Assembly: GCA_965227515.1 (NCBI GenBank)
Contig: CBDDFZ010000001.1
Coordinates: 800,001 to 864,000, forward strand
DNA length: 64,000 nucleotides
Direction of reading: 5' to 3'
From: Alphaproteobacteria bacterium
GTDB lineage: Bacteria > Pseudomonadota > Alphaproteobacteria > CALKHQ01
The translations under genes and the position numbers were made by a program. This document shows positions 2,913 through 57,208 of this stretch, one piece after another. The notes under the pieces were generated by a model, which worked only from the letters and a program-made list of their open reading frames with translations, did not search any database and was not told the origin of the DNA. How positions within the stretch are numbered: the stretch's first letter is position 1; each line of letters begins with the position of its first letter.

Positions 2913-3575
2913 TTGAGTGCCAGCGATCCCTTCGTTCGACGCGTCGTCATCGCCGACGATCACAAGATCGTCCGTGCCGGCCTGCGCGCCGCGTTGGAGG
3001 CGCCGGGCACAATGGCGGCGGCACCCATCGAGGTGGTCGAGGAAGCGGGCGACGGCCTCGCCGCCATCGCCGCGGTCAAGCGCCACCAGCCGCACCTGCT
3101 GTTGCTGGACGTGTCCATGCCCCACGCCGGCGGGGTGGAGGTGCTGCTGGAAGTGCGGCGCTGGAGTCCGGATACCGCCGTGGTGGTGTTCACCGGCGTC
3201 ACCGCGCCCGGCCTGATCAGCGACCTGATCGACGCCGGTGTCGATGGCCTGTTCTCCAAGGCCTCCGACGACACCGAGCTGTTCGAGAAGCTGCCGCTGA
3301 TCCTGCACGGCGGGCGCCATATCTCGCAGACGTTCGTCGACCGGCTTGAGGCGCGGCCGGCGCGCACCGAACTGACCGACCGGGAGCGCCAGACCCTGAA
3401 CATGATCATCGCCGGCCGGTCCAACAAGGAGATCGCCAGCGGGCTCGGCATCAGCATCAAGACGGTGGACAAGCACCGCACCAGCCTGATGCAGAAGCTG
3501 AACGTCTCGTCGGTCGCGCAACTGATGGCGCTCGCCCTGAAGGAAGGGCTGATCGATCCGGCGCAGGAACTGTGA
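2913..3575 (+). CDS. NarL/LuxR-family DNA-binding response regulator
   Basis: Receiver domain (IADDH, LLDVSMP) plus LuxR HTH (LTDRERQTL, SNKEIA, SIKTVDKHRTSLMQKL). Divergent from the kinase. Confidence 0.93.
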   Translation: MSASDPFVRRVVIADDHKIVRAGLRAALEAPGTMAAAPIEVVEEAGDGLAAIAAVKRHQPHLLLLDVSMPHAGGVEVLLEVRRWSPDTAVVVFTGVTAPGLISDLIDAGVDGLFSKASDDTELFEKLPLILHGGRHISQTFVDRLEARPARTELTDRERQTLNMIIAGRSNKEIASGLGISIKTVDKHRTSLMQKLNVSSVAQLMALALKEGLIDPAQEL

Positions 3576-48957: not shown

Positions 48958-50478
48958 CTACTCCGCGGCTTCCGCCGTTGGCTCCTCCGGGGTCCAGCGC
49001 AGCACCGGCTGGCGGGCGGCGCGGGTCTCGTCCAGCCGGCGGCGCGGCGACATGCGCGGCGCGTCGTGGAAGAAGTCGGCGTCGCCGGATTTCGCCCGCT
49101 CGGCCAGCGCCCGCATCGAGCCGATGAGCGTGTCGAGGGCCGCCTTGGACTCGGTCTCGGTCGGCTCCACCAGCAGCGCGCCGTGCACCACCAGCGGGAA
49201 ATAGACCGTCGGCGGATGGAAGCCTTCGTCGATCAGCCCCTTGGCGATGTCGAGCGTGGAGACATCGGTGCCCTTCAGGAAGCGGTCGTCGAACAGCGCT
49301 TCGTGCATGCAGGTGCCCTCGAACGCCGGCGTCATCACATCGGCCAGCGAGGCCTGGATGTAGTTGGCATTCAGCACCGCGTCGCCGGAGACCTGGGCCA
49401 GCCCGTCGCGGCCATGGCTCATCATGTAGGCGAGCGCGCGGGTGAACATGCCCATCTGGCCGAAGTAGGCTTTCAAGCGGCCGAAGGGATGCGCACCCCC
49501 GGCATCGGCCGCGTGCTCGACCGGCTCGAAGTTGTCGCCGTCGCGCGCAACCCAAGCAAGCGGCGCGTAGGGCGCCAGCGCTTCTGAGAACACCACCGGC
49601 CCCGCGCCCGGACCGCCGCCGCCATGGGGCGTCGAGAACGTCTTGTGCAGGTTGATGTGCATGGCGTCGATGCCGAGGTCGCCGGGCCGCACCCGCCCGA
49701 CGATGGCGTTGAAGTTGGCGCCGTCGCAGTAGAAATAGCCGCCGACGCCGTGGATCGCCTCGGCGATCTCGATGATCTCGTTTTCGAACAGCCCGCAGGT
49801 GTTGGGGTTGGTGATCATGCAGCCGGCAACGTCGTCGCCCAGCTTGTCCTTGAACGCGGCAAGGTCGACCCGGCCACGGTCGTCGCCAGGCACCGCATCC
49901 ACCGTATAGCCGCACGCGACCGCCGTCGCCGGATTGGTGCCGTGGGCGGACTCCGGCACCAGCACGCGCTTGCGGGGGTTGCCGCCCGCCTCGTGCGCGG
50001 CGCGGATCGCCAGCATGCCGCAGAGCTCGCCATGGGCGCCGGCGGCGGGCGACAGAGCCACCGCCGGCATGCCGGTCAGGGTCTTCAGCCAGTGGGCCAG
50101 CCGGTCCAGCACCTCATAGGCGCCCTGCACGGTGGCGGCGGGCTGCAACGGATGCACGTCGGCGAAGCCGGGCAGGCGTGCCACCTTCTCGTTGATGCGC
50201 GGGTTGTGCTTCATGGTGCACGAGCCGAGCGGGAACAGCCCGCTGTCGATGCCGTAGTTCCACTGGCTGAGCCGGGTGAAGTGGCGCACCACCACCGGCT
50301 CCGACAGGTCCGGCAGGCCGATCTCGCCCTTGCGCTCCAGCCCGCCGAGCTTGTTGTCGGAGAGGTCGGTGTCAGGCCAGTCGACGCCGCACTGGCCGGG
50401 GCTGCCCTGCTCGAAGATCAGCGGCTCTTCGAGCTGCAGGGCGCGATGCCCGCTGGAGGTCTCGATATCGGTCATCAC
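48958..50478 (-). CDS. gcvPB: Glycine dehydrogenase subunit 2
   Basis: [11 protein letters not shown] and [18 protein letters not shown]. Confidence 0.96.
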
Positions 50479-51818
50479 AGCACCTCCTTCAGCGCCTTGG
50501 CGAAGGCGGCGATGTCGTCGTCGGTCGTGGTCTCGGTCGCGGCGACCAGCAGCAAGTCGGCCACATCAGGGTTGTCCGGCAGCAGGCGGCTGACCGGCAC
50601 CCCGCCCAGCACGTCATGGCCGACCAGGGCGTCGACCACCCCGGCGGCCGGCTTCGGCAGCCTGACCGTGAACTCGTTGAAGAAGGTCTGGTTGATGACC
50701 TCGACACCTTCAATACCGCCCAGCGCCTCCGCCGCGCGCATGGCGGTGGCGTGGTTCAGCGCCGCCAGCCGCCGGAGCCCGGTCTCGCCCAGCAACGTCA
50801 TGTGGATGGTGAAGGCCAGCGCGCACAGGCCGGCATTGGTGCAGATGTTGGAGGTGGCGCGCTCGCGCCGGATGTGCTGCTCGCGGGTGGAGAGTGTCAG
50901 CACGAAGCCGCGCTTGCCGTCGGCATCCACCGTCTCGCCGCACAGCCGGCCGGGCATTTGGCGGATGTACTTCTGGCGGGTGGCGAACAGGCCGACATGG
51001 GGGCCGCCGAAATTGACCGGGTTGCCGATGGACTGGCCCTCGGCGACCACGATGTCGGCGCCCATCTCCCCCGGCGCGGCCAGCAGGCCGAGTGACACCG
51101 TTTCGGTGACGACGGCGATCAGCAGCGCCCCGGCCTCTTGGCAGGCCTTGGCGAGCGGGCGCAGGTCGTGCAGCTCGCCGAACAGATCGGGCGTCTGCAC
51201 CACCACGCACGACGTATTGCCGTCGATGGCACCGGCCATATCCTCGGCAGCGCCCGGCGCGGCATCCTGCGCCGCCACCTCGAAGCCCAGGAAGTGGGCG
51301 TGGGTCTCGACGATCTCGCGATAGTGCGGGTGCAGCGCGCCGGAGAGCACGGCCCGGCCGCGCCTGGTCGCCCGGTTGGCCATCATCACCGCCTCGGCGC
51401 ACGCGGTCGATCCGTCGTACATGGAGGCGTTGGCCACATCCATGCCGGTCAGCAGCGCGACCTGGGTCTGGAACTCGAACAGCACCTGCAGCGTGCCCTG
51501 GGCGATCTCCGGCTGATAGGGCGTGTAGGCGGTCAGGAACTCGCCGCGCTGGATCAGATAGTCGACGGCGGCCGGCACATGGTGGCGGTAGACCCCGGCA
51601 CCGACGAAGAACGGCCCGTCGCCCGCCGGCCTATTCTTGCCGGCCAGCAGGCGCATGGCGCGCTCGACCGACAGTTCGTCCTGATGGTCCGGCAGGTCGA
51701 GCGGCGCTTTCAGGCGGCCCGCCGCCGGCACGTCGGCGAACAGGTCGTCGACGGTATCGACCCCGATCGCGGCCAGCATGGCCGCCCGGTCGCCCTCGCT
51801 GTGCGGCAGGTAGCGCAT
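50475..51818 (-). CDS. gcvPA: Glycine dehydrogenase subunit 1
   Basis: [13 protein letters not shown] and [17 protein letters not shown]. Confidence 0.96.
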
Positions 51819-52186
51819 CAGTCGAGGCCCTTCACGTAGTCGGCATAGGCGCCGTCGTCCATCAGCCGCTCGAGGTCGCCCTTGTCGGCCAGCTTCAGCT
51901 TGACGAACCAGCCGCTGCCCTCGGCGTCCTCGTTGACCATGGCCGGCGTCTCGTCCAGCGCGCTGTTGACCTCGATCACCTCGCCCGACACCGGGGAATA
52001 GATCTCGCTGGCGGCCTTCACCGATTCGACCACGGCCACCTCATCGAACTGGCCCACGGTCTTGCCGACCTCCGGCAGCTCCACATAGACCACGTCGCCA
52101 AGCTGTTCCTGGGCGTAGGTGGAAATGCCGATGGTGGCGGTGTCGCCGTCGATGCGGACCCATTCATGCTCTTTCGAATAATGCAT
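51818..52186 (-). CDS. gcvH: Glycine cleavage system H protein
   Basis: EHEWV and lipoyl site [13 protein letters not shown]. Confidence 0.96.
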
Positions 52187-52216
52187 ATGCCTACTCCGGT
52201 GGGTGTGCGGTCAGTT

Positions 52217-53329
52217 TCAGCGGTGGTAGCGGTGGGGTGCGAACGGCAGCCGGACGACCTCGGCCGGCAACGGCTTGCCGCGCACGATGACGTCGACCTC
52301 GGTGCCGACCTTGGCGTGGTCGCTGGCGACGTAGCCCATGGCGACCGGGTGCTCGACCGTGGGGCCGAAGCCGCCGCTGGTCACCTCGCCGATGGCGTTG
52401 CCGGCCTTGTCGTGGATCTCGCTGTGGGCGCGCACCGGCGCGCGGCCGGTGGGCTTCAGCCCGACGCGCTTGCGCGGCGCGCCGTCGGCGATCTGGCGCA
52501 GGATCGTGTCGGCGCCGGGGAAACCGCCTTCTTCGCGCCGCTGCTTGCCGATGGTCCAGGTGAGTGCGGCTTCCACCGGCGTGGTGGTGGTGTCGATGTC
52601 GTTGCCGTAGAGGCAGAGGCCCGCCTCCAGGCGCAGGCTGTCGCGCGCGCCCAGTCCGGCCAGCTCGACCTCCGGCTCGGCCAGCAGCGCCTCGACCACG
52701 CGCACCGCGCCGTCCGCGGCGATCGAGATCTCGTAGCCATCCTCGCCGGTGTAGCCGGAGCGGGTGGCGAAGCACGGCACGCCGGCAATCTCGGCATCGG
52801 CGCAGGTCATGAAGGCCATGTCGCGCAGACCGGGCGCCAGCCGCGCCACCGCGTCCGCCGCCTTCGGGCCCTGTACCGCCACCAGTGCGCGGTCGGGCAG
52901 CGGCGTCACCGTGCAGGTGCCCGCCATCGCCGCCGTCATGTGCTGAATGTCCTCGGCCTTGCGGCTGGCATTGACCACGGCGAAGTAGTGGTCGCCGCGA
53001 TTGGTGACCATCAGGTCGTCCAGGATGCCGCCATTGTCGTCGGTCAGCAGGCAATAGCGCGTGTGCCCGACCTCCAGCCCCTTGATGTCGGCCGGCACCA
53101 GGGTCTCCAGCGCGGTGGCCGCCTTGGCCTGATCGGCCGCGCGAATTTCGACCTGGCCCATGTGCGAGACGTCGAACAGGCCGGCCGCGGTGCGGGTCTG
53201 GCGGTGCTCGGCCATGATGCCGTCGGCGTACTGCAACGGCATGGCATAGCCGGCGAACGGCACCATCTTGGCGCCATGAGCGCGGTGCAGCGCGTCCAGC
53301 GGCGTGGTTTCCAGATTTTCTTCGGTCAA
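52217..53329 (-). CDS. gcvT: Glycine cleavage aminomethyltransferase
   Basis: FDVSHMG, RSGYTGEDGYE and GLGARDSLRLEAG. TTG start at 53329 after GGAGG. Confidence 0.95.
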   Translation of the reverse strand: MTEENLETTPLDALHRAHGAKMVPFAGYAMPLQYADGIMAEHRQTRTAAGLFDVSHMGQVEIRAADQAKAATALETLVPADIKGLEVGHTRYCLLTDDNGGILDDLMVTNRGDHYFAVVNASRKAEDIQHMTAAMAGTCTVTPLPDRALVAVQGPKAADAVARLAPGLRDMAFMTCADAEIAGVPCFATRSGYTGEDGYEISIAADGAVRVVEALLAEPEVELAGLGARDSLRLEAGLCLYGNDIDTTTTPVEAALTWTIGKQRREEGGFPGADTILRQIADGAPRKRVGLKPTGRAPVRAHSEIHDKAGNAIGEVTSGGFGPTVEHPVAMGYVASDHAKVGTEVDVIVRGKPLPAEVVRLPFAPHRYHR

Positions 53330-53385
53330 GGCCGCCCTCCGCACAACAGGTTGGTACGCCACGCCGGCCGTGGCCCGCGCGCATA

Positions 53386-53597
53386 CCCCGCTCTGTCGGA
53401 GGACCTGAGAGATTGCCCGCGCCGCCCATCACGATGCCGGTAGCGCAGGTTTCCCCGTCGGTGGACCGGCTTGTGGGCCGGCCGCTTTCCAGAGGTGCCT
53501 CGATCTGCGGTCCGTTGGCCTGAGAGTTTCCGGGGCGGTTGCTCCTTCGGCGCCGGCGCAAGGTGTTACCCTCTCACCGGACTCTCCCACAGACGTC
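53386..53597 (-). promoter_or_regulatory. Tandem glycine riboswitch
   Basis: GGGAGAG...CGCCGAAGGAGCAA...AACTCTCAGG then CTCTGGAAAG...CACCGACGGGG...TCTCTCAGG...GACAGAG, upstream of gcvT. Confidence 0.93.
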
Positions 53598-53614
53598 AGT
53601 GGCGATGTCTGGTC

Positions 53615-53642
53615 AGACTAACCGGCTGGCGGAGAGTGTCAA
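53615..53642 (-). promoter_or_regulatory. Sigma70 promoter of the gcv operon (TTGACA-N16-TAGTCT)
   Basis: Consensus -35 and good -10 just upstream of the riboswitch. Confidence 0.65.
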
Positions 53643-53734
53643 TGCGGCTGCGCCCGTCCGTTGTGTTAGTCTGAGAGGGCTGTGATGCGAGTCGTCTAAA
53701 CGCCCAACGCTCAGGAACTACCACTTAAGAATCA

Positions 53735-54166
53735 ATGGCAATTGCAGAGCACCCACGACCTGGCACAATTCTGTTGTGTGATTTTGATACTGGGTTTCTT
53801 CCTCCCGAGATGGTCAAAAGAAGGCCTGTGGTTGTAATTAGCCCAAAGATATCTGTTCGCGCCCGATTGTGCACAATAGTTCCAATTAGTACTGAGGCGC
53901 CACGACCGCAAATGGCGTATCACTACGAACTTCGCGACCTTGACCCGCCACTCCCTCCGCCGTGGGATGTTGGTCCAAACTGGATCAAAGGCGACATGAT
54001 CTATTCGGTTAGATTCGAGCGACTGGATTTCTTCCGCTACGGAAGGGATGCGAACGGAAAGCGCATTTACCGATACGAGATACTTCCAGAGGAAGATCTA
54101 AAGGCAGTGAGACGTTGCGTCCTCAGTTCCCTTGGCTTAGCCAGCTTGACAAAGCACCTTCCCTAA
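53735..54166 (+). CDS. Orphan PemK/MazF-family endoribonuclease toxin
   Basis: PGTILLCDF, PPEMVKRRPVVVISP and CTIVPIST. Visibly AT-richer than the flanks, with no adjacent antitoxin ORF. Confidence 0.85.
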   Translation: MAIAEHPRPGTILLCDFDTGFLPPEMVKRRPVVVISPKISVRARLCTIVPISTEAPRPQMAYHYELRDLDPPLPPPWDVGPNWIKGDMIYSVRFERLDFFRYGRDANGKRIYRYEILPEEDLKAVRRCVLSSLGLASLTKHLP

Positions 54167-54174
54167 CTCATATC
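54145..54174 (+). promoter_or_regulatory. Sigma70-like promoter embedded in the 3' end of pemK (CTTGACA-N17-CATATC)
   Basis: The -35 TTGACA at 54146-54151 lies in the codons for L-T of the C-terminal LTKHLP. Confidence 0.6.
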
Positions 54175-54180
54175 TTGATA

Positions 54181-54312
54181 CGAGTGCTGCTCTCGCCGCA
54201 AGGCGATCAGCGTCTAAGACCCTTCGGGGCACGCCGCGCACCAAGCGACACCAAGCTTTCGCGCGGCGTCGAGCAAGCCGGGCGGCACAAGGACTGTGTC
54301 GCCCTTTTTTTT
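54181..54312 (+). ncRNA. Putative structured ncRNA downstream of pemK (candidate RNA antitoxin)
   Basis: GCAA- and UUCG-tetraloop hairpins, a 9-bp GC-rich stem, five CAAG motifs, and its own promoter and terminator. Inferred; boundaries approximate. Confidence 0.55.
54280..54312 (+). terminator. Rho-independent terminator
   Basis: GGGCGGCACA/TGTGTCGCCC stem followed by T8. Confidence 0.85.
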
Positions 54313-54362
54313 GTTAATGTCGGTGCAAGCATTCTGCCGGTGCCACGCGCCTCCACTCTGGC

Positions 54363-54935
54363 CTACCCGCCACCAAGCCGGTTGTACTGCAGCTCGTCGG
54401 ACGAAAGCTGGAAGCCGACATAGACCGTGTAGCCGCGCCCGCTGTCGACCCCGCCGGGTAGCGGGATCGTCTCGCCCACCACCTCGCGCAGGCCGATGCG
54501 GTTCTCGCCGTCGTCGAACGACACGGTCTGGTCGAACACCTGCTTGCCGATGATGGTCTGGTCCGGCCGCGCCACCGCGACATAGAACTGGATCGCCTGG
54601 CTGTCGGCCGCCATGCCGGTGTTGCGGTCGAACACCATGGTCAGCGCGGTTTCGACGAAGACGTCCTCGTCGGAATAGTCGCAGTCGACCAGCACCTCCA
54701 CGATCTCGCCACGCACCGCGACCTCGTCGGGCGTCGCCACCGCGCCGCCGAACCGGATCAGTTTGGAGGTTTCGGCCACCAGCACCACATCCGGGCAGCC
54801 GATGGTGATCGCGTCGCTCTCCGTCCCGCCGCAGGCCGCCAGTGCCGACGCCGCGGCGGCCATCGCAACGAAAGGTGCGACCTTGCGAACCGCCCGCTGC
54901 ATCGCGGGCTTGCCTTGCCAACGCTGAAACTTCAT
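54363..54935 (-). CDS. Conserved hypothetical lipoprotein
   Basis: LAAC lipobox, CP...C, and C-terminal VGFQL..EL.YNR. Divergent from ispH. Start uncertain. Confidence 0.7.
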   Translation of the reverse strand: MKFQRWQGKPAMQRAVRKVAPFVAMAAAASALAACGGTESDAITIGCPDVVLVAETSKLIRFGGAVATPDEVAVRGEIVEVLVDCDYSDEDVFVETALTMVFDRNTGMAADSQAIQFYVAVARPDQTIIGKQVFDQTVSFDDGENRIGLREVVGETIPLPGGVDSGRGYTVYVGFQLSSDELQYNRLGGG

Positions 54936-55096
54936 CTTCCGATCGTCACGACTGGTGTGCCCCGATGGTTGGCGCGGACCCGGCGGTGCGGTGAGTTGCC
55001 CGCGAAGGCGCGGAGTCTAGTTGCCCCGGCGGCTACCTGCAATGGCCCCTGGCAGCAATGAACCGCCGGCCGCAAGCGACGAGAGCAAACGACACG

Positions 55097-56074
55097 ATGC
55101 CGCCCGACACGTCCAAGCCGAAGCTTCCCGATACGGCAAAGCCGAAACTTAGGGTGCTGCTGGCCGCGCCCCGCGGCTTCTGCGCCGGCGTCGATCGTGC
55201 GATCCGCATCGTCGAGCTGGCCCTGGAGAAGTTCGGCGCGCCGGTCTATGTGCGTCACGAGATCGTGCACAACCGCTATGTGGTGGCGGGCCTGGAGCAG
55301 AAGGGGGCGGTGTTCGTGGAGGAGCTGGACGAGGTGCCGGACGACGCGCCGGTCATCTTCTCCGCCCACGGGGTGCCGAAGGCGGTGCCGGCCGAGGCGC
55401 GGCGCCGCGCGCTGACCTATGTCGACGCGACGTGCCCGCTGGTCAGCAAGGTCCACCGCGAGGCCGAGCACCACCACGCCAACGGCTGCCACATCGTGCT
55501 GATCGGCCATGCCGGCCACCCCGAAGTCGTCGGCACCATGGGCCAGTTGCCCGACGGCGCTACCACCCTGGTCGAGACGGTGGACGACGTGGCCGGGCTC
55601 GCCTTCACCGGCGGCCAGGACTTGGCCTTTGTCACCCAGACCACGCTGTCGGTGGACGACACCGCCGCCATCGTCGCCGCTCTGCGCGCGCGCTATCCGG
55701 CGATCCAGGGGCCGAAGCGCGAGGACATCTGCTATGCCACCACCAACCGGCAGCAGGCGGTGAAGGCGATCGCACCGCGCTGCGACGCCCTGATCGTGGT
55801 CGGTGCGCCGAACTCGTCCAACTCGCGCCGGCTGGTCGATGTCGCCGCGCGTGCCGGCTGCGCCGACGCCATGCTGGTGGAGCGCGGCGGCGACGTGCCG
55901 CTGGACCGGCTCGCCGGCATTGCCACCCTGGGCATCAGCGCCGGGGCCTCCGCGCCCGAGATCCTGGTCGACGAGGTCATCGATGCCTGCCGCGCCCGCT
56001 TCGACATCACGGTGGAGCATGTCGACGTCGTGCGCGAGGACGTGACCTTCAAGCTGCCGCGCGCGGTGGCCTGA
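55097..56074 (+). CDS. ispH: 4-hydroxy-3-methylbut-2-enyl diphosphate reductase
   Basis: [33 protein letters not shown] and NSSNS. Confidence 0.96.
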
Positions 56075-56209
56075 GCGCGATGGCCCGACCCATGCTCGAC
56101 CTGCCCGCAGCCCTGCCCGGCGCCCGAAACGCCAGTAGTATGTCTGGGCGGCCGGGTGGGGGTATGGGCCGGCGCCGAATTCGGCGCACGCCAGTGCGCC
56201 TGATTTAAG

Positions 56210-57208
56210 ATGGCGGTTTATACCGAGGTCACCGACGAGGACCTGGCCACGTTCGTCGCCGACTACGACATCGGCGAGGTGGTCTCGGCCAAGGGCATCG
56301 CAGAGGGGGTGGAGAACTCCAACTACCTGCTGCAGACCACCGGCGACAGCTACATCCTGACCCTCTACGAGAAGCGGGTGAAGGAGGAGGACCTGCCGTT
56401 CTTCCTCGGCCTGATGGACCATCTGGCCGGCGCCGGCTTTACCTGCCCGACCCCGATCAGGGCCCGCGACGGCGTGGCGCTCAGGGCACTTGCCGGCAGG
56501 CCCGCCGTCATCATCTCCTTCCTGAAGGGCATGTGGCCGCGCCGGGTGCAGCCTTATCACTGCGCCGAGGTCGGCACCGCGATGGCGCGCATGCACGTCG
56601 CGACCGAGGACTTCACCATGACCCGCGCAAACGCGCTGTCGGTGGATTCCTGGCGGCCGCTGTTCCAGTCGTGCCGGGACCAGGCCGACAAGGTGTGGGC
56701 CGGCATCGGCGATACGCTCGATACGGAGCTGGCCGTGCTGGAGGCGGAGTGGCCGCAGACCCTGCCCACCGGCGTCATCCACGCCGACCTGTTCCCCGAC
56801 AATGTGTTCTTCCTCGGCAAGGCGCTGTCGGGCGTGATCGATTTCTACTTCGCATGTACCGACTGCCTGGCCTATGACGTGGCGATCTGCCTTAACGCCT
56901 GGTGCTTCGAGCAGGACGGCAGCTTCAACGTCACCAAGGCGCGCCGTTTCCTGGCCGGTTATTGCGAGGTGCGCCCGTTTACCGATGCCGAACTCAACGC
57001 GCTGCCGTTGCTGGCGCGCGGGGCTGCAATGCGCTTCTTGCTCACCAGGCTCTACGACTGGCTGAACCTGCCGCCCGGCGCCATGGTGCAACCGAAGGAT
57101 CCGATGGAATATCTCTACAAGCTGAAGTTCCACGCCAAGGTCAACGACCCCGGCGAGTATGGGCTGGACGCACGCCGGGTGGCCGGCTTCGTCTCACCAT
57201 GGCTGTGA
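56210..57208 (+). CDS. thrB: Homoserine kinase type II
   Basis: [21 protein letters not shown] and IDFYFAC. Confidence 0.95.

Follow-up and report, generated by a model that had tools for sequence, protein, structure and literature searches.

A YifN-type MazF-fold protein gene is followed by a conserved structured RNA gene, a candidate RNA antitoxin

Which partner accompanies a putative MazF-type toxin when no antitoxin gene lies beside it? The question is raised by a window of 64,000 nt on contig CBDDFZ010000001.1 (assembly GCA_965227515.1, Alphaproteobacteria bacterium), which is the whole stretch analyzed here and to which all unlabeled coordinates refer. It carries a solitary gene for a protein of the PemK/MazF fold and the YifN type. 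To our knowledge, MazF and PemK are textbook type II toxins that have always been described with protein antitoxins, and neutralization by an RNA (type III) is known only for toxins of the ToxN-like kind, which are paired with repeat arrays. The initial annotation, made from the letters alone, had described an AT-richer 143-residue gene with no adjoining protein antitoxin open reading frame (ORF) and had proposed that a self-promoted, terminated RNA just downstream is its antitoxin. It suggested comparing the 200 nt downstream of homologs, testing them for covariation, examining conservation of the TTGACA-encoded C terminus, and searching Rfam. The description of the gene was borne out by the ORFs, the Pfam assignment, and the guanine-plus-cytosine (G+C) profile, in which the gene shows fractions of 0.475 to 0.53 against 0.67 to 0.76 in most flanking 200-nt windows. 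The suggested comparisons showed that the gene is followed by a structured RNA gene with promoter signals, which shares its terminator and is linked across genomes to a MazF-fold protein that keeps the catalytic residues.

The linkage between gene and RNA was examined in genomes and viral contigs. A scan of 185,579 species genomes, with one genome per species, gave 481 relatives of the protein, and the best 80 loci were compared. The same RNA lay directly downstream of the gene in all 80 loci. It was seen in 76 of them in alignments anchored on TTGAC, and a covariance model of 91 positions, R1, found it in the other four (L065, L067, L068, and L082). R1 also matched three loci outside its training alignment (L019, L023, and L062). 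Viral contigs of IMG/VR contained 91 relatives, of which 80 loci were compared, with proteins 37 to 63% identical. R1 matched beside the gene in 59 of these loci: 57 times on the same strand just downstream and twice (L213 and L216) on the opposite, convergent strand, where the RNA has its own TTGACA. Among the other 21 viral loci, 14 showed by eye a variant RNA with a GAUAACAA-type hairpin and a terminator, 2 were cut by the contig end, and 5 (L222, L224, L226, L227, and L239) had no obvious RNA. In all, the toxin gene stood without a visible RNA in 7 of the 80 viral and in none of the 80 genome loci. Two viral contigs each contained two R1 matches 1 to 3 kb apart (L175:2425-2509 and 3445-3529; L188:230-317 and 3437-3525).

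The protein was assigned to the MazF family by sequence and by predicted structure. PemK_toxin (PF02452) was its sole Pfam match (E = 9.6e-12, residues 9 to 130). An AlphaFold2 model, for which an alignment of 100 sequences was the input, had a mean predicted local distance difference test (pLDDT) value of 94.5. Among the Foldseek matches listed, all were MazF-type proteins (S. aureus, B. subtilis, M. tuberculosis, E. coli, and D. radiodurans) with a probability of 1.00 and template modeling (TM) scores of about 0.7 to 0.83, normalized to the target, and the best matches were MazF of S. aureus and B. subtilis (TM about 0.8). Across the 100 sequences, Arg30 does not vary, and at least 90% have Ser52. 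In a profile search of PDB sequences, Arg30 aligned with the HRPAVV Arg and Ser52 with the PCTT Thr of E. coli MazF chains, positions that we take to be catalytic. In a study of K. pneumoniae MazF, the equivalent Arg and Thr residues are called critical (PMC8086154). With its modeled MazF fold and the conserved Arg30 and Ser52, the protein appears to be capable of catalysis. Compared with MazF, it has about 30 additional residues and two helices at the C terminus. Its relatives are named in public sources as "YifN (PemK superfamily)," "mRNA interferase MazF," and "type II TA system PemK/MazF family toxin." NCBIfam and PADLOC gave no match for the protein, and PHROGs assigned it to a family of unknown function, phrog_15698 (E = 9e-20), and weakly to a MazF-like family. 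The window protein is the only PF02452 match in its own genome, which is 99.67% complete.

A protein partner was sought in the 80 genome loci by clustering every ORF of at least 45 amino acids that lay up to about 1.5 kb from the gene. No ORF cluster was present in more than nine loci, leaving aside the clusters formed by the gene, by its shadow frames, and by the translated RNA region; the nine-locus cluster was a transposase. The sequences upstream of the gene were unrelated among loci. In the genome that contains the window, MazE-type proteins (PF04014, the one antitoxin fold searched for) gave no match.

The RNA region was then compared with shuffled sequences and with its homologs. The 154 nt after the stop codon fold with -63.8 kcal/mol (z = -3.30), and none of 200 shuffles was as stable. 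Three hairpins and a terminator with eight T residues had been read from the sequence, and all were found in place: TCGCC-GCAA-GGCGA at 54193 to 54206, CCC-TTCG-GGG at 54220 to 54229, and a third in which ACGCCGCGC (54231 to 54239) pairs with GCGCGGCGT (54261 to 54269), enclosing ACCAAGC twice (54240 and 54250). The terminator hairpin at 54280 to 54304 with its T8 run is the only plus-strand terminator-like site in 53300 to 55100. Homologous loci have analogous G+C-rich terminator hairpins with T runs, and the terminator sequence is variable. No terminator lies between the PemK coding sequence and the RNA, and the hairpins belong to the 3' end of the PemK mRNA.

An alignment of 74 sequences (A2) gave a three-hairpin consensus. 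P1 has a nearly invariant asymmetric internal loop with GCUCU opposite AUC, the linker GUCUAAGAC is conserved, P2 is short with four G-C pairs, and the long P3 has at its apex a 3-bp stem that closes the 8-nt loop GAnnnCAA. RNAalifold predicted 20 pairs, 17 of which showed compensatory changes. With the structure fixed, 95.1% of 1458 cells formed standard pairs, compared with 36 to 49% when the 3' partners were slid by 1 to 3 columns. The covariation score was 0.605 and at most 0.165 in the slid controls, and none of 500 shuffles reached the observed score or percentage paired. These results show that the structured RNA gene is held to its fold by purifying selection. R1 scored the window site at 72.3 bits, which was the single site in its genome at E ≤ 1; no second or partial copy was found there with this model. 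Rfam 15 contained no family matching 54167 to 54320 at E ≤ 10. At the gathering score, it matched 11 homologous or RNA-only loci only at tRNAs and a thiamine pyrophosphate (TPP) riboswitch elsewhere in those loci. No tRNA or transfer-messenger RNA (tmRNA) was called in the window by ARAGORN or by the Rfam tRNA and tmRNA models. A relationship with tmRNA was rejected, as the permuted tmRNA of the same genome (G000:C1:305198-305515) differs in sequence and is not matched by R1. Judged by its strong covariation and by the lack of a matching Rfam 15 entry, the RNA appears to be a new RNA family.

The initial annotation had also read CTTGACA in the last codons of the gene, followed 17 bp later by CATATC, as a promoter that would start a transcript near 54181. 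Both boxes are present, and the 5' end of the RNA, placed from the -10 box, is predicted near 54181 ± 2. A generic sigma-70 scan called no site and missed CTTGACA-N17-CATATC because CATATC poorly matches TATAAT. The -10 box of the window fits a (C/T)TATAT-type box kept across homologous loci, where the consensus is of the (C)TATAT type, (C)T-A-T-A-T, with A in 68 and T in 62 of the 75 distinct loci (column counts). TTGAC was found at the conserved C-terminal Leu-Thr codons in 76 of the 80 genome loci. The Thr codon was ACA in 62 of the 75 distinct genes, despite a background in the same genes of 19% TTG among Leu codons and 20% ACA among Thr codons. In viral contigs, TTGAC preceded the RNA by 30 to 45 nt in 42 of the 54 distinct RNAs. 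In some loci and in the E. coli relative yifN, TTGACA lies on or after the stop codon, indicating that the promoter, and not the peptide, is the conserved feature.

The promoter bears on whether the hairpins could be a purely cis-acting element, serving mRNA stabilization or termination, with the boxes being incidental. The absence of a terminator between the coding sequence and the RNA suits this idea, since it makes the hairpins the mRNA 3' end. Against it are TTGAC kept at synonymous sites together with a conserved -10 box, RNA copies that have their own promoter and no upstream gene, and the two viral loci with the RNA on the convergent strand. A related possibility is a conventional protein antitoxin encoded elsewhere, against which the missing MazE-type match in the genome argues. 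We regard the two, taken together, as the least likely of the explanations considered in this study.

The proposal that CAAG may be the recognition site of the toxin was not upheld. The five occurrences (54199, 54242, 54252, 54274, and 54288) are real and exceed the approximately 0.44 expected per 130 nt of one strand, given 434 CAAG on both strands of the 64 kb. As a feature of the family, the site did not hold. The CAAG at 54252, in the apical loop of P3, is conserved (CAAG in 49 and CAA in 70 of the 74 sequences), whereas the positions aligned with 54199 and 54242 are not, and those at 54274 and 54288 lie in variable sequence. Of the 74 cores, 18 lack CAAG altogether, and it occurs once in 33. 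Conservation among the unpaired elements falls instead on GCUCU/AUC, the linker, and GAnnnCAA. The only short duplication, the two ACCAAGC copies inside P3, is not conserved. A sequence similar to the linker, GTCTAAACG, occurs at 53695 to 53703, 40 nt before the PemK start codon. GTCTAAA at this distance from the ATG was considered as a conserved 5'-leader motif and rejected, as only 3 of 75 loci have something similar, and the likeness is probably due to chance.

A more distant member of the protein family is E. coli yifN (b3777), which is annotated as a PemK/MazF-family toxin and is a pseudogene in K-12. At the K-12 locus (L250:2890-3470, minus strand), TTGACA overlaps the stop codon and is followed, after a 17-nt spacer, by GATAAT; downstream are a short hairpin-forming stretch with CUAAGU and a terminator before ppiC. 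In one other strain inspected (O157:H7, L252:1210-1857), yifN is intact and lies between rep and ppiC without an annotated antitoxin. The yifN region was present in 4016 of 5426 complete E. coli genomes. The window and E. coli loci are alike in the protein family, the solitary gene, TTGACA at the gene end, a -10-like box, a hairpin, and a terminator. They differ in that the window RNA is longer, has a third hairpin, and is detectable by R1, which gave no match on the yifN locus, where the RNA-like stretch is shorter and the third hairpin is missing. In the accessible text of papers matching "yifN," we found no reported function of the gene or of an RNA linked to it.

In addition to the loci with both parts, copies of the RNA alone were found. 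Eighty metagenome contigs were retrieved by an exact 17-nt linker motif, a choice of motif that biases the sample. The PemK gene was directly upstream in 44 contigs (35 full length and 9 partial), and the upstream sequence was too short to tell in 5. The remaining 31 had at least 520 nt upstream with no tblastn match to the PemK protein; 20 of them were true R1 matches, and 11 were chance 17-mers inside other sequence. The 20 RNA-only copies comprise 18 distinct sequences, of which L099 is weak and partial. Remnants of the last PemK codons were found in three (L093, L095, and L139), and in several, the third hairpin was simpler. A TTGAC box stood at the right distance in 8 of 20 RNA copies (17 RNA-only copies and 3 at contig ends). 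One RNA directly follows a tRNA-Lys gene (L118:61-140), the partial copy of L099 (7349-7415) lies between tRNA-Met and tRNA-Thr genes, and some copies lie beside phage-like genes. Other RNA-only loci are L087-L089, L094, L105, L106, L115, L119, L127, L129, L146, and L153. A long ORF upstream of the RNA in L139 was considered and dropped; it has no Pfam match, and its C-terminal part resembles out-of-frame read-through. RNA-only copies are frequent and protein-only loci are rare, an asymmetry that would be expected if the RNA protects against the protein.

The same copies are also what an independent, trans-acting small RNA (sRNA) would leave if it merely shared a mobile cassette and a terminator with the PemK gene. 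The 20 copies without a detectable PemK gene upstream, the TTGAC kept in 8 of the 20 examined, and the tRNA or phage-like genes next to some of them point in this direction. Known sRNAs derived from the 3' untranslated region (3'-UTR) have an internal promoter, base-pair with other mRNAs, and are not coinherited with one protein family across phyla. The window RNA resembles that class in having its promoter in the end of the upstream gene and a terminator common with the mRNA, but it differs in forming a cotransferred unit with the protein. The gene is almost never found without the RNA, down to 37% identity and in several bacterial phyla, which hitchhiking fails to explain. Antisense (type I-like) action on the toxin translation start was tested with RNAduplex, using the RNA core against the cognate region from -50 to +30 and 100 mononucleotide shuffles. 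In this crude test, in which the duplexes are unrealistically long, the RNA did not pair with the start region of its gene better than the shuffles did; the mean z was -0.31, and z fell below -2 in 4 of 73 loci. We consider an independent sRNA quite unlikely.

Four loci (L016:3530-3650, L033:3538-3650, L035:3530-3640, and L095) showed a further domain. In these, the RNA core is not directly followed by the terminator but by a circularly permuted tRNA-like domain, with the order T-arm, 3' acceptor strand ending in CCA, short linker, GGGG-type 5' acceptor strand, D-like arm, and terminator. The third acceptor pair is G-U, as in the Ala type. A four-way junction fold was obtained for L033 (z = -5.25) and L016 (z = -3.56). 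Neither ARAGORN nor Rfam called the tRNA-like extensions of the four loci. These fusions raise the possibility that gene and RNA form a dedicated ribonucleoprotein, in which the MazF-fold protein processes or binds the RNA or the RNA is a cofactor or specificity subunit, for example, for phage defense sensing or translation-linked surveillance. Such a particle would account for the linkage and covariation as well as an antitoxin does. The Ala-type G-U pair and the CCA of the permuted domains hint at a tRNA or translation link, and an intact gene is widespread in E. coli chromosomes without an annotated antitoxin. However, the protein retains the catalytic Arg and Ser/Thr positions of true MazF toxins, the mobile, patchy distribution and decaying copies are typical of toxin-antitoxin cassettes, and clustering of neighbors in the 80 loci revealed no further conserved component. 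We consider a ribonucleoprotein of this kind unlikely, although it stands ahead of the independent sRNA.

The genomic contexts of the module were examined in phages, plasmids, and chromosomes. The gene was found in 11 records of PM2-like temperate Vibrio phages. In the one inspected, PQ189296 (L253:1-1426), it is the last gene at one genome end and is followed by a weak R1 match (E = 0.0025) and a terminator. The gene lies there downstream of cro-like and LexA/S24-like genes, opposite the integrase end; the final 380 nt contain a divergent RNA and a terminator, and three GGTCATTGAAG-like repeats precede the RNA promoter. In integrase-bearing Vibrio prophage records, the module lies less than about 800 nt from one end. 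Relatives were also present in 26 plasmid records. In 9 of the 80 genome loci (L009, L017, L018, L022, L026, L030, L038, L052, and L080), the PemK gene was preceded on its own strand by a transposase gene, directly so in most of them; this transposase was IS1-like or helix-turn-helix by Pfam in L017 and L080. In several loci, the transposase stop codon is at the PemK start codon or a few nucleotides from it. In L028:1765-2832, an IS1595-type transposase gene ends about 170 nt upstream of the PemK gene. This arrangement suggests that the module may ride as insertion-sequence cargo. From its contexts, the module appears to travel on prophages, plasmids, and insertion sequences, as addiction or defense cassettes do.

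In the window, the module forms an islet of about 600 bp flanked by housekeeping genes (Table 1). An ordinary glycine-cleavage operon occupies 50475 to 53362 (minus strand); gcvT comes first, then gcvH- and gcvP-like ORFs, and the operon leader borders on the PemK gene. The gap between the glycine riboswitch and the PemK ATG is 135 nt, and downstream, the RNA is followed by a convergent gene, so that a conventional antitoxin gene would not fit. The 3' end of the convergent 190-residue ORF is about 50 nt from the RNA terminator. The protein was absent from all 60 related genomes searched, which fits horizontal acquisition. In the three genomes of its family that were compared for an empty site, the riboswitch region lies on one contig and the downstream gene on another.

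Table 1. Positions of the module and its neighbors in the window
Feature	Position	Strand	Basis or remark
PemK/MazF-fold protein gene (YifN-type, putative endoribonuclease toxin), 143 aa	53735..54166	+	ORF, Pfam PF02452
-35 box TTGACA	54146..54151	+	Leu138-Thr139 codons; CTTGACA at 54145-54151
-10 box TCATAT	54168..54173	+	16 nt after TTGACA; overlaps CATATC 54169-54174 (17-nt spacer)
Conserved RNA core	54182..54273	+	74-sequence alignment, RNAalifold, covariance model R1
P1 outer stem	54186-54189 with 54208-54211	+	RNA core
P1 internal loop CUCU/AU	54190-54193 opposite 54206-54207	+	RNA core
P1 inner stem, GCAA loop	54194-54197 with 54202-54205	+	RNA core
Linker GUCUAAGA	54212-54219	+	RNA core
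P2, UUCG loop	54220-54222 with 54227-54229	+	RNA core
P3	54232-54239 with 54261-54268	+	RNA core
P3 apical stem closing loop GACACCAA (54247-54254)	54244-54246 with 54255-54257	+	RNA core
Intrinsic terminator: 10-bp stem (7 G-C), then T8	54280..54312 (stem 54280-54304)	+	Common to RNA and PemK read-through
gcvT	52217-53362	-	Upstream of PemK gene, opposite strand
Tandem glycine riboswitch	53391-53494 and 53498-53599	-	67 and 39.9 bits; upstream of gcvT
Convergent ORF, 190 aa	54363-54935	-	No Pfam match; signal-peptide/lipobox-like N-terminus

The position of the module near one end of integrase-bearing Vibrio prophage records, together with RNA-only copies abutting tRNA genes and the tRNA-like fusions, could mean that the RNA gene is a landmark for mobile DNA, an integration target or element end comparable to tRNA and tmRNA genes, with PemK as edge cargo. 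The window does not fit this explanation, since its islet has housekeeping genes on both sides, the ORF list for 51000 to 57000 showed nothing that resembled an integrase gene, and its genome has no second or partial RNA copy. Moreover, the covariation reflects selection on the fold of the RNA and not on a DNA site, and the promoter is conserved. We consider a landmark function very unlikely.

The reading that we favor is a two-gene module consisting of a YifN-type, MazF-fold, endoribonuclease-like protein and then a dedicated small structured RNA, about 130 nt long. This RNA would have two sources. Because no terminator separates it from the gene, it would form the 3' end of the PemK mRNA, and it would also be transcribed from its own strong sigma-70-type promoter, whose -35 box coincides with the Leu-Thr codons, and so be in excess. 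It would then bind the protein and hold it inactive, as an RNA antitoxin of type III logic does. Candidate contact or pseudo-substrate sites are the CUCU/AU internal loop, the GUCUAAGAC linker, and the GAnnnCAA(G) apical loop. We assign a probability of roughly 45% to such a type III-like antitoxin, separately transcribed in excess, that binds and blocks the putative toxin. It fits the lack of a conserved neighbor protein and of a MazE-type gene in the genome, and the contrast between common RNA-only and rare toxin-only loci. What stands of the initial interpretation is a structured, terminated RNA gene with promoter signals, coupled to an antitoxin-less PemK/MazF gene in 80 of 80 loci and supported by covariation; the CAAG site does not stand.

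Several points weigh against the RNA antitoxin. The toxicity of the protein, the expression of the RNA, and their mutual binding are things we infer. The opposite strand folds about equally well (z = -2.93), and since both strands fold alike, the strand of the RNA was assigned from its promoter and terminator and from pairs that include G-U. A separate function of the RNA would explain equally well the RNA-only copies that have their own promoters, some of them by tRNA genes, and a plain antitoxin would not need the tRNA-like fusion seen in four loci. The third hairpin is missing from the yifN stretch, so that the delimitation of the RNA core is provisional. Finally, the anatomy of type III systems, that is, tandem repeats, a ToxN-like toxin, and the gene order, is absent.

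This last point was considered by comparing the module with known systems. ToxN has a Kid/MazF-like fold, and in type III systems, the RNA gene precedes the toxin gene with a terminator between them. Like the type III systems ToxIN, CptIN, and TenpIN, the module has an endoribonuclease-type protein beside a small RNA gene and no protein antitoxin, its layout would give an excess of RNA over toxin, and it is carried on phages and plasmids. Unlike them, its toxin is a true PF02452 PemK/MazF protein, for which the Foldseek matches listed were all MazF and none of the ToxN/AbiQ type. Its RNA is a single molecule of three hairpins, with no rows from Tandem Repeats Finder on 53400 to 54500. Its RNA gene comes after the toxin gene, with a promoter inside the coding sequence of the toxin and no terminator until after the RNA. 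The type III class is defined by a protein toxin inhibited by a noncoding RNA, with an antitoxin of multiple RNA repeats and a cyclic complex (PMC8860590). The module had been proposed as a type III locus in reverse order; the RNA gene is indeed downstream of the toxin, whereas membership in the class does not follow, given the toxin family, the lack of repeats, and the order. By analogy, "type III" may describe a possible mode of action and not class membership.

The type II systems MazEF and PemIK (Kis-Kid) share with the module the toxin fold, the Pfam family, and the aligned catalytic Arg and Thr/Ser. In contrast to them, no protein antitoxin gene is conserved in the 80 loci or present in the window, PF04014 is absent from the genome, the protein has the C-terminal extension of about 30 residues with two helices, and a conserved RNA gene occupies the position of the partner. 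In the literature as far as it was accessible, we found no description of this RNA or of a pairing of MazF with an RNA, although the supplements of toxin-antitoxin surveys might list the family. The accessible part of PMC2701414 mentions only a solitary MazF, that of Myxococcus.

A broader reading is more tentative still, and we regard it, with all of its parts holding together, as possible rather than probable. YifN-type proteins and their downstream RNAs would then form a large, overlooked toxin-antitoxin class in which one nonrepetitive RNA neutralizes a genuine MazF-family endoribonuclease. The class would be spread over Alpha-, Gamma-, and Deltaproteobacteria, Planctomycetes, plasmids, insertion sequences, and temperate phages, and would include the E. 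coli yifN locus. Its RNA would come from a promoter in the last codons of the toxin and would also be part of the toxin transcript. In phage-like DNA, the RNA-only copies would be immunity or anti-defense decoys, and the tRNA-like fusions would tie the system to the translation machinery.

If the RNA is an antitoxin, the pairing of a MazF-family toxin with a single structured RNA would bridge type II and type III and would explain the "orphan" PemK/MazF annotations in the YifN-type family. RNA databases would gain a new family with strong covariation, and the dual coding, in which two sense codons double as a -35 box, is unusual. Because a relative is present in most E. coli chromosomes, a model organism offers a direct test of the idea. 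The occurrence of the module in phages and with insertion sequences suggests that it has a role in addiction or phage defense.

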